A stretch of DNA of 7,803 nt from a virus (IMGVR_UViG_2711768004_000001), one strand, 5' to 3'; counted from the stretch's first letter, positions 1,746-5,330 are shown. Notes: generated from the letters alone by a model not told the origin. Made by a program: numbers and translations.

Positions 1746-2510
1746 ATGGCAAAACCGGACTGGGAGGCCATCGAATCGGCATACCGGGCCGGAGTCCTTA
1801 GCCTCCGTGATATAGGCGAGAAATACGGCGTTACAGAAGGGGCTATCAGGAAGAGGGCCAAAAAGCTTGGTTGGGCACGCAGTGGCGGTACGCAGGTTTG
1901 CAAAAATGGTACGCAAAAAAGGAAAGTGCGTACCAGCAGAAAGCCTGCCATTACTGGCCTTACACAAAAAAGTACGCAACTAAAAACAGAATCTACACCG
2001 GATACGAAACCGATACGCGGAATGCGTACCGATCCCCCGACTAACCCATTCCAACCCGGTAACCAGCAGGCATTAAAACACGGTGGTTATGCCCGTCGCC
2101 TTCTGCTCAAAGATGAGGTGATAGAGGACGCTAAAGCGTTGACGCTCGAGGACGAATTATTTCGCCTTCGTGCTAACAACCTTGTCGCTGCAGAGAATAT
2201 TGGTCGGTGGTTGGTGTCGCTGGAAGATGCTAATGGGGACCAGGAAAGGAAGATGCTGATTGAAAATATCAGCGCCGCCGAGAAAGCAATGATGCGCAAT
2301 ACAGTTCGTATTGAGTCCATCGTTGGCACGCTTGCGACGGTAGGAAAAATATTTGCTGATACAGCCTACCGCAAGGCCGCCACTGATAAGGTGTCTCTGG
2401 AGGCTGATCGTCTTCGCCGTGATGCAGGTATTGATGATGGCAATGGAGAGCGTGACCTCAATGACTTCTACTCTGACATCCAAACCGACGCTGAATCCGG
2501 CTTTACGTAG
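1746..2510 (+). CDS. Terminase small subunit (N-terminal HTH DNA-binding domain)
   Basis: RBS AGGAAG 9 nt upstream of ATG 1746. N-terminus MAKPDWEAIESAYRAGVLSLRDIGEKYGVTEGAIRKRAKKLGW is a typical terminase small-subunit HTH. A basic low-complexity linker follows. Sits immediately upstream of, and overlapping, the large terminase gene. Confidence 0.85.
   Translation: MAKPDWEAIESAYRAGVLSLRDIGEKYGVTEGAIRKRAKKLGWARSGGTQVCKNGTQKRKVRTSRKPAITGLTQKSTQLKTESTPDTKPIRGMRTDPPTNPFQPGNQQALKHGGYARRLLLKDEVIEDAKALTLEDELFRLRANNLVAAENIGRWLVSLEDANGDQERKMLIENISAAEKAMMRNTVRIESIVGTLATVGKIFADTAYRKAATDKVSLEADRLRRDAGIDDGNGERDLNDFYSDIQTDAESGFT
1887..2040. repeat. Cluster of direct and inverted GTACGCA repeats inside the small-terminase gene (candidate pac / terminase recognition site)
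   Basis: GGTACGCA at 1887-1894 and 1908-1915, GTACGCAA at 1972-1979, inverted TGCGTACC at 1927-1934 and 2033-2040. Copies 1908-1915 and 1927-1934 form an 8-bp inverted repeat with an 11-bp A-rich spacer. Confidence 0.3.
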
Positions 2511-3864
2511 TTTCTGGACTATGCGGGCACGTAACAAAGTGCTTTATGGTGGTCGGTCATCGTCAAAATCATGGGATGCCGCTGGCATTGCCATATTTCT
2601 GTCGAATAAATACACCCTGCGTTTTTGTTGTGCCCGTCAGATCCAGAATAAAATCGAAGAGTCGGTGTATACCCTGCTCAAAATTCAGATAGACAGGTTT
2701 GGTCTGCGGCACCGTTTCCGTATTCTGAACAACAAAATCATTAACCGGGTTACTGGCTCGGAATTTGTTTTTTATGGATTATGGCGCAACATCGAAGAAA
2801 TTAAGTCACTGGAGGGGATCGATGTGTTGTGGCTGGAAGAAGCCCACGCACTGACGGAATACCAGTGGAAAATTCTGGAGCCAACGATCCGTAAAGAGGG
2901 TTCGGAATGCTGGTTCATATTCAACCCCGGACTTGTTACTGATTTCGTCTGGCGCAACTTCGTTGTTGATCCGCCCGAAGGCACTCTCATCCGCAAAATT
3001 AACTATGACGAAAATCCGTTTCTGTCTGACACCATGCTTAAGGTTATCGACGCGGCGCGACGCCGTGATCCGGATGGTTTTAAACATGTGTATGAGGGCG
3101 TTCCGGAGTCTGATGATGATGCGGCAATCATCAAACTGTCTTGGATAGAAGCCGCAGTGGATGCGCACAAAACGTTAAATTTCGAACCCAGTGGAAGAAA
3201 GCGTATTGGCTTTGACGTGGCTGACAGTGGTACAGATAAGTGCGCTAACGTTTACCGTCACGGATCCGTTGTTTTCTGGGCCGACGAATGGAAGGCCAAA
3301 GAAGATGAATTACTGAAGAGCTGCCAGCGTACTTATCAGGCGGCGCTGGAGCGTGAAGCAGATATTGTTTACGACTCTATCGGTGTTGGTGCGTCTGCCG
3401 GTGCTAAATTCTCTGAAATTAACGCTGACCGGAAGAGCGAGAACGCATACGCGCGACGTGTGAATTACCAGAGGTTTAACGCCGGTGCTGGTGTGCATGA
3501 GCCAGATGACGAGTACAACGGCATCCCCAACAAAGACTTTTTCGCAAATCTTAAGGCTCAGGCATGGTGGCTGGTGGCTGACCGTTTCAGAAATACGTTT
3601 AACGCCATTAACAACGGAGAACAGTATCCTGTGGATGAGCTGATCAGCATAGATTCTCGTTGTCCGTTGCTTGAAAAGCTGAAACTGGAACTGACAACAC
3701 CTCATCGTGATTTCGACCGTAACGGACGTGTGATGGTCGAAAGTAAAAAAGACCTCGCAAAACGCGAGATACCGTCACCAAACGTTGCTGATGCATTCAT
3801 TATGGCCTTCGCGCCAATCGATACATCGCTGGATATCTGGGAACAGCTGGGGAGACAGGCCTGA
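2461..3864 (+). CDS. Terminase large subunit (Terminase_6/PBSX-like ATPase-nuclease)
   Basis: Long ORF with P-loop-like LYGGRSSSKSW near the N-terminus and later blocks (IKSLEGIDVLWLEEAHALT, WFIFNPG, FVVDPPEG, AIIKLSWIEAAVDAHK) that match recalled P22/Sf6-type large terminases. Start chosen at ATG 2461 (GGAG 2445-2448; N-terminus MTST...). Alternative in-frame ATGs at 2434, 2437 and 2443. The track ORF start at 2353 is probably read-through inside the small-terminase gene. Stop TGA 3862-3864. Confidence 0.88.
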   Translation: MTSTLTSKPTLNPALRSFWTMRARNKVLYGGRSSSKSWDAAGIAIFLSNKYTLRFCCARQIQNKIEESVYTLLKIQIDRFGLRHRFRILNNKIINRVTGSEFVFYGLWRNIEEIKSLEGIDVLWLEEAHALTEYQWKILEPTIRKEGSECWFIFNPGLVTDFVWRNFVVDPPEGTLIRKINYDENPFLSDTMLKVIDAARRRDPDGFKHVYEGVPESDDDAAIIKLSWIEAAVDAHKTLNFEPSGRKRIGFDVADSGTDKCANVYRHGSVVFWADEWKAKEDELLKSCQRTYQAALEREADIVYDSIGVGASAGAKFSEINADRKSENAYARRVNYQRFNAGAGVHEPDDEYNGIPNKDFFANLKAQAWWLVADRFRNTFNAINNGEQYPVDELISIDSRCPLLEKLKLELTTPHRDFDRNGRVMVESKKDLAKREIPSPNVADAFIMAFAPIDTSLDIWEQLGRQA

Positions 3865-5330
3865 TGGCACGAAACAAACAAGCCCTGCGGCGAACTGTGC
3901 AGGCCACAGCTGATGGTTATGAGAATTTTATTGCCCGCGTAGGGATGCAGACACCTAACCAGCACTCAGCATCCACCTACCGGGCTAATTTCACCAGTCG
4001 TAACCGCATGCTGGTGGAATGGTCCTATCGTTCATCCTAGATCATCGGCGAAGCAGTCGATGCTATCCCGGATGATATGACCCGCAAAGGCATTCGCATC
4101 ACTTCGGAAATTGATGCAAAAGATCGTGGCATTCTCGAATCACAACTGGATGAGTTGCAAATCTGGGATGCGCTGAATGACGTGCTGAAATGGTCGCGCC
4201 TCTACGGCGGCGCGGTGGGTTTCATCATGATTGAGGGGTAGGCACCAATGACCCCGCTGCGACCCGAAACCATCGGTAAGGGCAAGTTTAAGGGGATTCT
4301 CCCGCTCGACCGCTGGATGGTCGACCCGGCACTGACCCGCCGCATTAAAGATATGGGGCCGGACCTGGGTAAACCTGAGTTTTACGATGTGGTGACCACA
4401 GCAACGGGAATTCCTGCCTGGCGCATTCATCACAGTCGCCTGATTCGCTTTGATGGCGTCACGTTGCCATTTCAGCAGAAGATGACCGAGAACGAATGGG
4501 GAATGTCGGTTGTAGAGCGTATCTGGGATCGTCTTACCGCGTTCGACAGCGCTACTGTCGGCGCGGCGCAGCTGGTCTACAAGGCGCATTTGCGTACCTA
4601 CAGCGTGGAGAAGCTACGCGAGCTTATCGCACTTGGTGGTCCTGCGTATGAAGCGTTGCTGAAGAATATCGACCTGATTCGACAGTTCCAGAGTAATGAA
4701 GGCATGACGCTCATGGACTCGCGGGATAAGTTTGAAACCCATCAGTACAGCTTCAGTGGTCTGGATGACATCCTTTCGCAGTTTGTAGAACAGATTAGTG
4801 GCGCTGTTGGTATCCCACTGGTGCGGTTGTTCGGACAGTCCCCGAAAGGATTTTCTACCGGTGATGCAGACCTTGCCAACTATTACGATCGCATCAGTTC
4901 GTTGCAGGAGAGGCGTTTACGTCTTCCGGTGCGGCGGATACTGGACATCATGCATCGTTCGGAACTTGGCAAGCCGCTGCCGGACGATTTCACGTTTGAG
5001 TTTAACCCGCTCTGGCAAATGTCTGATGTCGATCGCTCAACGGTGGCGTTAAACACCACCAACGCAATCAGTACGGCGCTGGGTGATGGTCTGATGACAC
5101 TGAAAGCCGCTATGACTGATTTGCGAGAAAATTCTGACGTAACCGGCATCGGGGCATCCATTACCGACGAGGACATCGAGAATGCCGAAGATGAAGCGCC
5201 GCCCGGCATCGGCGAACCTGATGACGAACCGCAGGAGCCGTCAGGCGGAAATCCGGTATCGAACCAGCCTACGCAGGATAGCGAGGGCGGTCGGAGACAT
5301 CGTAAATGGTCGCTACGATGGTTCAAATGA
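3864..5330 (+). pseudogene. Portal protein gene interrupted by two in-frame TAG codons (intact ORF remnant 4248-5330)
   Basis: ATG 3864 overlaps the terminase stop (TGATG). A single frame is readable from 3864 to 5330, with TAG at 4038-4040 and TAG at 4239-4241 as the only stops. Translation continues sensibly through both (…EWSYRSS*IIGEAVDAIPDD… and …FIMIEG*APMTPLRPE…). Acidic C-terminal tail. Position between large terminase and the Mu-F-like gene fits a portal. Confidence 0.75.

Follow-up and report, generated by a model that had tools for sequence, protein, structure and literature searches.

Does a cluster of short repeats inside a small-terminase gene mark the place where a phage recognises its own DNA for packaging, or do the repeats follow from the peptide that they encode? 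The question is raised by a 7,803-nucleotide stretch of the viral genome IMGVR_UViG_2711768004_000001 (the whole of which we call the window), in which the sequence GTACGCA recurs in both orientations within terS, the gene of the small terminase subunit. We consider it likely that this cluster is an array of 8-bp putative sites read by the helix-turn-helix (HTH) domain of the very small terminase that the gene encodes, and that it forms the recognition part of a pac site. The small terminase is proposed as the reader because the repeat co-varies with its recognition helix among relatives of the gene.

The repeat array and the protein segment it encodes

GTACGCA is present six times on the two strands of the window, against a mean of 0.76 in shuffled sequences; none of 200 dinucleotide-preserving shuffles reaches six (their maximum is four), and a chance origin of the cluster is excluded. 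Five of the six copies fall in 143 bp at 1888-2029, all within the open reading frame (ORF) of terS, 1746-2510: they stand at 1888-1894, 1909-1915 and 1972-1978 on the plus strand and at 1927-1933 and 2023-2029 on the minus strand. Four of them extend to GGTACGCA or, inverted, to TGCGTACC, and the consensus of the site is (G)GTACGCA(A), 8 bp long. Two of these copies form an exact 8-bp inverted repeat, GGTACGCA at 1908-1915 and TGCGTACC at 1927-1934, around an A-rich spacer of 11 bp (aaaaaggaaag); the symmetry extends to 9 bp at 1907-1935, and the forward-reverse pair is present in every member of the window's terS family. The original prediction had described five copies of GTACGC(A) in both orientations within about 150 bp, together with the inverted repeat at 1908-1934, and the coordinates agree in both respects. 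The extent that it gave, 1887-2040, does capture the cluster but not its start, since the array begins at 1874 and three decayed copies (at 1874, 1895 and 1959) had been missed (Table 1).

At the place equivalent to the decayed copy 1895-1902, Klebsiella-type relatives have GGTACGCA read as V-R, in a frame that differs from that of the neighbouring copies. The last inverted copy, at 2023-2030, sits in a conserved peptide, G-x-R-T-D-P-P; it is also found in locus L085, which has another helix and other repeats, and it is missing in locus L086. Close by, the codons of another conserved peptide, P-D-T-K-P-I-R-G, contain a short direct repeat, cGGATACGaaaccGATACGcgg (2000-2019), which is nearly invariant in nucleotides across the E. 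coli and Klebsiella types and in L085 with its different helix and repeats, which is too little divergence to separate constraint on the DNA from constraint on the protein.

Table 1. Positions of the terminase genes, the predicted recognition helix and the repeat copies in the window
Feature	Position	Strand	Remarks
terS, small terminase, 254 aa	1746..2510	+	HTH domain, disordered linker, helical oligomerisation body (predicted)
Predicted recognition-helix codons, residues 31-41, EGAIRKRAKKL (third helix)	1836..1868	+	from AlphaFold2 model and co-variation
Decayed copy GGCACGCA	1874..1881	+	1 mismatch; reads W-A-R; close relatives have GGTACGCA, read W-V-R
Repeat copy GGTACGCA	1887..1894	+	read G-T-Q
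Decayed copy GGTTTGCA	1895..1902	+	2 mismatches; reads V-C
Repeat copy GGTACGCA	1908..1915	+	read G-T-Q; left arm of inverted pair
Inverted copy, TGCGTACC on plus strand	1927..1934	-	read V-R-T; right arm of inverted pair
Decayed copy CTTACACA	1959..1966	+	2 core mismatches; Klebsiella-type relatives have cGTACGCA
Repeat copy AGTACGCA	1971..1978	+	read S-T-Q
Inverted copy TGCGTACC	2023..2030	-	read M-R-T; array membership less certain
terL, large terminase	2425..3864	+	start approximate, placed by length against the GZ7 annotation

The product of terS matches phrog_370, 'terminase small subunit', over residues 1-252 (E = 7.5e-95), and its N-terminal 67 residues also match phrog_1206, another small-terminase family. 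No Pfam or NCBIfam family scored above the cut-off, the Pfam HTH matches over residues 17-41 being weak, and a sequence search of the PDB returned chance-level matches only, with no small terminase among them. In the AlphaFold2 model the first 45 residues form a three-helix N-terminal domain (helices 6-15, 20-27 and 31-41) and residues 114-199 a long helical hairpin; the predicted local distance difference test score (pLDDT) is 81-90 over residues 1-40, near 30 over residues 48-98 and only 62 overall. Foldseek comparison of this model with the PDB gave coiled-coil look-alikes only, none at E <= 0.001 and no solved small terminase; apart from its HTH domain and hairpin, the model is too weak for a fold search. 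The low-confidence segment, residues 48-98, is the predicted disordered linker, and it is encoded by nucleotides 1887-2039, almost the same interval as the repeat cluster, so that the earlier placement of the repeats in the region encoding the linker of the small terminase stands. By this model the sites fall where the gene codes for the least constrained segment of the protein, and we propose that they are tolerated in terS because of this placement. As they also adjoin the part of the gene that encodes the HTH domain, domain and DNA site would be inherited together. The first 42 nucleotides of terS (1744-1785) are also found at 95% identity, without annotation, in many E. coli chromosomes, including those of BL21 and E2348/69; these chromosomal copies are probably what is left, in cryptic prophages, of related terminase genes.

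Because all five perfect copies in the window share an in-frame reading, as (G/S)-T-Q or, in reverse, as x-R-T, the window alone cannot tell a repeated DNA site from repeated codons, and the comparison rests on 116 loci encoding relatives of the window small terminase, drawn from viral contigs and bacterial genomes. Klebsiella-type relatives, with about 88% nucleotide identity to the window, have more hexamer sites, and their stretch S-G-T-Q-V-R-K-N-G-T-Q mixes G-T-Q (gGT ACG Cag) with V-R (GTA CGC). Over the 58 distinct genes of the window's family, which have 5-12 copies each (median 8), the core is read 243 times as G-T-Q or S-T-Q (frame 1), 95 times as V-R (frame 0) and 116 times in reverse as x-R-T; the intact gene of locus L088, from Rouxiella, has the core in all three frames, the third giving Y-A. 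Codon choice is equally skewed: in the same 58 genes the threonine of linker T-Q is ACG in 249 of 268 cases (93%), against 151 of 551 (27%) elsewhere, and the V-R dipeptides of the linker are always written as GTA-CGC, the forward core, or GTG-CGT, the reverse core. The 12-bp unit to which the window copy at 1971-1978 belongs, aaaaaaGTACGC, encoding K-S-T-Q, stands three and five times in tandem in loci L071 and L073, a sign that slippage can lengthen the array.

A second terS family shares the HTH domain. Many loci resemble the window small terminase over the first 45-70 residues only and have a shorter, different C-terminal body (phrog_1206); they belong to phages GF-2, Edno5, HK639 and SEN34, to several Klebsiella phages and to prophages of Xenorhabdus, Kluyvera, Pluralibacter, Enterobacter and Izhakiella. 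Wherever the helix of this family reads (S/T)EGAIRKRAK, it is accompanied by three direct copies of GGTACGCA and one inverted copy, at fixed offsets right after the codons of the N-terminal domain. Among 16 distinct sequences of the family, third codon positions inside the four copies have a mean conservation of 0.977 (9 of 11 invariant), against 0.645 outside them (7 of 89 invariant). The repeats are thus conserved beyond what the amino-acid sequence demands, in three frames and both orientations, with a bias towards ACG and with frozen third positions. Frame usage, the use of both strands and codon choice in the relatives all show that the constraint acts on the DNA and that the peptide repeats are its by-product.

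Co-variation of the recognition helix and the repeat

Relatives with a different recognition helix carry a different repeat at the equivalent places. With the sample enlarged by a profile scan of viral contigs, 172 distinct terS genes could be tabulated, and helix classes set against hexamer cores fall on a clean diagonal, off-diagonal means being mostly near zero and at most 1.0 (Table 2). Identical helix-core pairs recur across phages of Enterobacteria, Pseudomonas, Aeromonas and Acidovorax. The apparent exceptions, Acidovorax phage AP1, Pseudomonas phage Shamal and Orisa03, have the expected motif with one imperfect copy.

Table 2. Recognition-helix classes and the repeats found with them
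Helix	Core	Genes	Site
EGAIR	GTACGC	100 (mean 6.4 copies)	GGTACGCA
HGAIN / HGAVN	GTATCC	39	GGTATCCA (HGAIN)
HTAIN	GTTTCC	7	GGTTTCCA
HQAIS	GTTGCC	7	GGTTGCC
DTAIR / DTAVR	GTTCGC	6	GGTTCGCA (DTAIR)
HATIL	GTAACC	2	GGTAACCA
HNTIL	GTGACC	1	
HVSIN	GTTAAC	2	

Two helix positions give a two-by-two pattern, in which G with R is found with GGTACGCA, T with R with GGTTCGCA, G with N with GGTATCCA and T with N with GGTTTCCA. Helix position 3, G or T, pairs with base 4 of the site, A or T, and helix position 5, R or N, pairs with bases 5-6, CG or TC. The residue encoded by the repeat shifts along with the motif, giving V-R, V-S, V-T or V-A; the encoded residue follows the motif, and therefore the DNA leads and the peptide is its passenger. 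Loci L086 and L089 combine a C-terminal body of the window type with an unrelated N-terminal domain, and here palindromes, TGCGAATTCGCA, are repeated instead of GTACGCA, which suggests that another reader domain arrived with its own sites.

In every helix class all copies, three to twelve of them, have been converted to the identical new sequence; such uniform change requires selection for identical sites and argues against mere linkage. The arrangement of the copies bears on the same point. In proteins with bodies of about 200 amino acids the copies run forward, forward, forward, reverse at spacings of 15, 12 and 28 (helices EGAIR, HGAIN, HGAVN, HQAIS and HSAIN), and in those with bodies of about 170 amino acids the spacings are 12, 13 and 16 (DTAIR, EGGIR, HATIL and HNTIL); EGAIR and DTAIR are each combined with more than one type of body, and each time the helix keeps its own motif while the spacing is that of the body. 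Spacing thus follows the C-terminal body and motif identity the helix, a split that simple linkage cannot explain. The association also holds in the reverse direction: 54 of 80 viral stretches with three close GTACGCA copies are terS genes with an (E/D)(G/A)AIRK helix, and none of the 80 is a terS gene of another helix class, the remainder being collagen-like G-T-Q repeats, non-coding tandem repeats, ORFs with S-T-Q that resemble replication initiators, and chance matches. In loci L236, L277 and L284, (A)GTACGCA arrays read as S-T-Q lie in ORFs that resemble phage replication initiators and are unrelated to terminase; these arrays may serve another system as iterons, the shared core being a coincidence.

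A broader reading, to which we give slightly better than even chances, is that a large, mosaic group of small terminases (at least PHROG 370 and 1206, from phages of Enterobacteria, Pseudomonas, Aeromonas and Acidovorax) shares one HTH domain, in whose recognition helix two positions set two parts of the 8-bp site GGT-N-NN-CA; with the sites written into the linker codons of the gene itself, reader and site would form a portable cassette for packaging specificity. As part of that reading, at least eight specificities would have arisen through concerted change of the helix and all copies, and competition for packaging between co-resident prophages or satellites might be the driver.

Packaging type, proposed mechanism and alternatives

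In the window terS lies directly upstream of terL, the gene of the large terminase, and overlaps it, a gene order shared with GZ7, a related temperate Klebsiella phage whose genome is complete. The TerL protein matches Pfam Terminase_3 (4.5e-38) and the PBSX family TIGR01547 and, in the PDB, Sf6 gp2 (4idh, E = 7.7e-78) and the nuclease domain of E217 TerL (8dkr, 1.3e-66). Sf6 is a headful packager, and because of its likeness to the Sf6 enzyme the window's large terminase appears to be of the headful type. The terminase, portal and Mu-F-like genes belong to a head-and-packaging module, in agreement with the earlier view of the gene set. The locus does not look like a cosB-type site, which would go with a nicking site, cohesive ends and a cos-type large terminase, its TerL grouping with headful enzymes. 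Headful packaging with a 933W-type large terminase has been reported for phages vB_EhrS_49 and 59 (PMC7317114), and both carry a compact terS with four GTACGCA copies; with the Sf6-like TerL of the window taken into account, the reader-plus-site module would therefore serve at least two headful terminase lineages. Searches of Pfam and of the PDB with the compact family's own large terminase gave no match.

In the GZ7 genome the GTACGCA copies of terS are the densest 7-mer cluster, with seven copies in 200 bp, and 7 of the 10 genomic copies lie within terS. The second densest cluster of that genome (L219, 8929-8990; TACCTGA and CGGGTAA) is in a gene annotated as replication protein O; we interpret it as origin iterons, and hence as a positive control for the cluster method. 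The records of Klebsiella phages Mulock, RCIP0034 and RCIP0098 end within or just after terS, and these ends were considered as packaging termini and rejected, the RCIP records being SPAdes contigs without terminus analysis; the genome announcement of Mulock is silent on packaging.

Codon-independent constraint, co-variation with the helix and the Sf6-like TerL thus all support a pac recognition site inside terS, as had originally been proposed. Mechanistically, an oligomer of the small terminase would carry several HTH domains on long flexible linkers, and these domains would engage several closely spaced sites together, so gaining specificity by avidity. The bound complex would then recruit the Sf6-like large terminase, which would cut nearby and thereby open a series of headful packaging events. 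Binding, oligomer geometry, cut position and packaging direction are all inferred features of this proposal.

Several points weigh against this proposal. The array of the window has the minimum copy number of its family (five), and its last inverted copy, at 2023-2030, may owe its presence to the conserved peptide in which it sits; the array of this strain may no longer be used, and its current function is doubtful (see below). Among distant members of the group, the terS genes of PdC23, Y7 and Y11 show no clear array. Less than 250 bp separate the helix codons from the sites, so that shared descent inflates the counts of co-variation: the association of helix and site is partly due to it, and the independent switches number, by our estimate, about ten and not 172. 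The structure model is of low overall confidence, with a pLDDT of 62, and the literature gave no binding, footprint or terminus data for any member.

If the repeats were a by-product of a low-complexity, slippage-prone linker peptide, with no function in the DNA, one would expect the in-frame (G/S)TQ or xRT reading of all five perfect copies in the window, the predicted disorder of the encoded segment and the varying number of 12-bp K-S-T-Q units in L071 and L073, which indicates that slippage occurs. Frame usage largely refutes this explanation, which we find scarcely credible: the core is also read as V-R, as Y-A and, in reverse, as x-R-T, codon choice is extreme, third codon positions hardly vary in the family whose copies are read as V-R, and the encoded residue changes along with the motif. 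The inverted copies might instead act as a hairpin in RNA or single-stranded DNA, for example in mRNA stability or translational pausing, with the direct copies incidental. Folding of 1880-2040 does predict a hairpin at 1907-1935, with a minimum free energy of -43.9 kcal/mol against -33.8 kcal/mol for shuffled sequences (z = -2.58; only 2 of 200 shuffles fold as well), and a class switch alters both arms together, which would also keep them paired. Most copies, however, are direct and unable to pair with one another, the start-to-start spacing of the arms ranges over 8-28 nucleotides in the compact families (19 in the window's family), no Rfam family matches anywhere in the window, and a hairpin gives no reason for a link to the residues of the recognition helix; we regard it as highly improbable.

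The reader could also be another DNA-binding protein of phage or host, or the sites could be targets of restriction-modification or methylation, an idea to which the adenine methyltransferase and the several HTH proteins encoded by GZ7 lend some substance. Yet the cluster is confined to terS, and in hosts as different as Enterobacteria, Pseudomonas and Acidovorax the site changes along with the recognition helix of the small terminase itself, which makes any other reader very unlikely. Co-variation tells who reads the sites, not why, and the small terminase might bind them for autoregulation, or for a cosB-like anchoring in a cohesive-end phage. The latter is brought to mind by the lambda-like R3, R2 and R1 sites, which adjoin the nicking site, by the accessory inverted site of N15 in the small-subunit gene (PMC4669245), and by the large terminase of the compact family with its lack of Pfam and PDB matches. 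Genome recognition is nevertheless the only established role of the small-terminase HTH (reviewed in PMC13595956), the TerL of the window is close to the headful Sf6 gp2, and phages 49 and 59 are reported to be headful packagers. A purpose other than packaging of the headful kind is therefore, in our opinion, unlikely, and a pac array read by its own small terminase remains the preferred explanation.

Among known systems, the pac of Bacillus phage SPP1 (and SF6) has short repeated boxes and a ring-forming G1P with an N-terminal HTH, pacR lies in the small-terminase gene, and packaging is headful. The likeness to the present case is thus in the repeated boxes, in the predicted HTH of the small terminase and in the location of a site within its gene (for background, PMC4737164 and PMC13595956), but the SPP1 and SF6 proteins have no detectable sequence relationship to the window small terminase, and here all sites are in the linker segment of the coding region, in 4 to 12 copies. 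For SF6, recognition has been described as multiple sequence-independent contacts (PMC4737164), whereas a sharp sequence code is apparent here. In lambda, 21 and N15 the recognition helix and the site differ together, and N15 has an accessory inverted site in the small-subunit gene (PMC4669245). Lambda cosB and gpNu1 resemble the present case in having three sites for the small subunit, one of them inverted, and in the joint change of helix and site by specificity group. They differ in that the lambda group belongs to the cos phages, where the HTH is a winged dimer and the site is bent by IHF and located mostly upstream of the gene, whereas here TerL appears to be of the headful type, the 8-bp sites are in the gene and at least eight specificity classes are visible instead of three.

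In Salmonella phage P22 and Shigella phage Sf6 the pac likewise lies in the gene of the small terminase, and Sf6 gp2 is a homologue of the large terminase of the window. The pac of P22, however, is a single asymmetric site of about 22 bp and not an array of short repeats, the P22 small terminase is unrelated in sequence, and no small terminase in the PDB matches the window protein. In P1, PacA and PacB recognise a pac made of hexamer clusters, under the control of hexamer adenine methylation; the clusters of a short repeated motif are alike, but the GTACGCA sites contain no GATC. The iterons of lambda-type O proteins, finally, are binding sites in the linker-coding part of the binder's own gene, an analogy of layout only, since they serve replication initiation and not packaging. 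The motif, the array and the helix-to-site code are without description in the searchable literature, a collection known to be incomplete, where the motif, looked for in a terminase context, turned up in nothing but primers and ribosome-binding sites.

Experiments have defined the packaging recognition sites of only a handful of headful phages, and how the terminase ring reads a specific sequence is still debated. The terS family supplies natural variants of specificity for which a simple code is predicted. If the code is true, the sequence could be used to predict the packaging specificity of hundreds of E. coli, Klebsiella, Salmonella and Pseudomonas prophages, as well as the plasmids or satellites that a given phage can mobilise, and short portable packaging signals could be built into engineered transducing particles. 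The terS array is also a clear example of a protein whose amino acids are set by a signal in the DNA that encodes it.

State of the prophage and neighbouring genes

Downstream of terL follow a portal gene, a Mu-F-like gene, a DUF2213 gene and a gene for a cement-like head protein. The portal gene (Phage_portal_3, 3864-5330) has two in-frame TAG codons, at 4038-4040 and 4239-4241, at positions that are Trp and Gln in relatives L004, L012 and L016; L002 shares both stops. The prophage of the window is probably defective, and the stops in the portal gene together with the three decayed sites suggest that it no longer packages DNA. The functional argument made above leans mainly on intact relatives.

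In several E. coli and Shigella loci with an identical or near-identical terS product (L001, L009 and L081), the distance from terS to the start of the portal gene exceeds that in L002 and L004 by about 1.33 kb (6447-6454 against about 5118, in locus coordinates), which suggests an insertion in or after terL. On the other side of terS, an ORF at 1039-1551 on the minus strand encodes a VTT (DedA-like) membrane domain and separates terS from the lysis region. Klebsiella phages, and most of the E. coli relatives listed, resemble the window only from about 1739-1745 onwards, and the segment of this ORF therefore looks like a lineage-specific insert (a moron). Further upstream, a run of 279 N at 489-767 breaks a lysozyme-like ORF (109-906), so that the lysis gene is not readable throughout. 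The Mu-F-like ORF, counted from its first ATG, has about 150 nucleotides (5182-5330) in common with the 3' end of the portal ORF, and the true start of the gene is probably further downstream.

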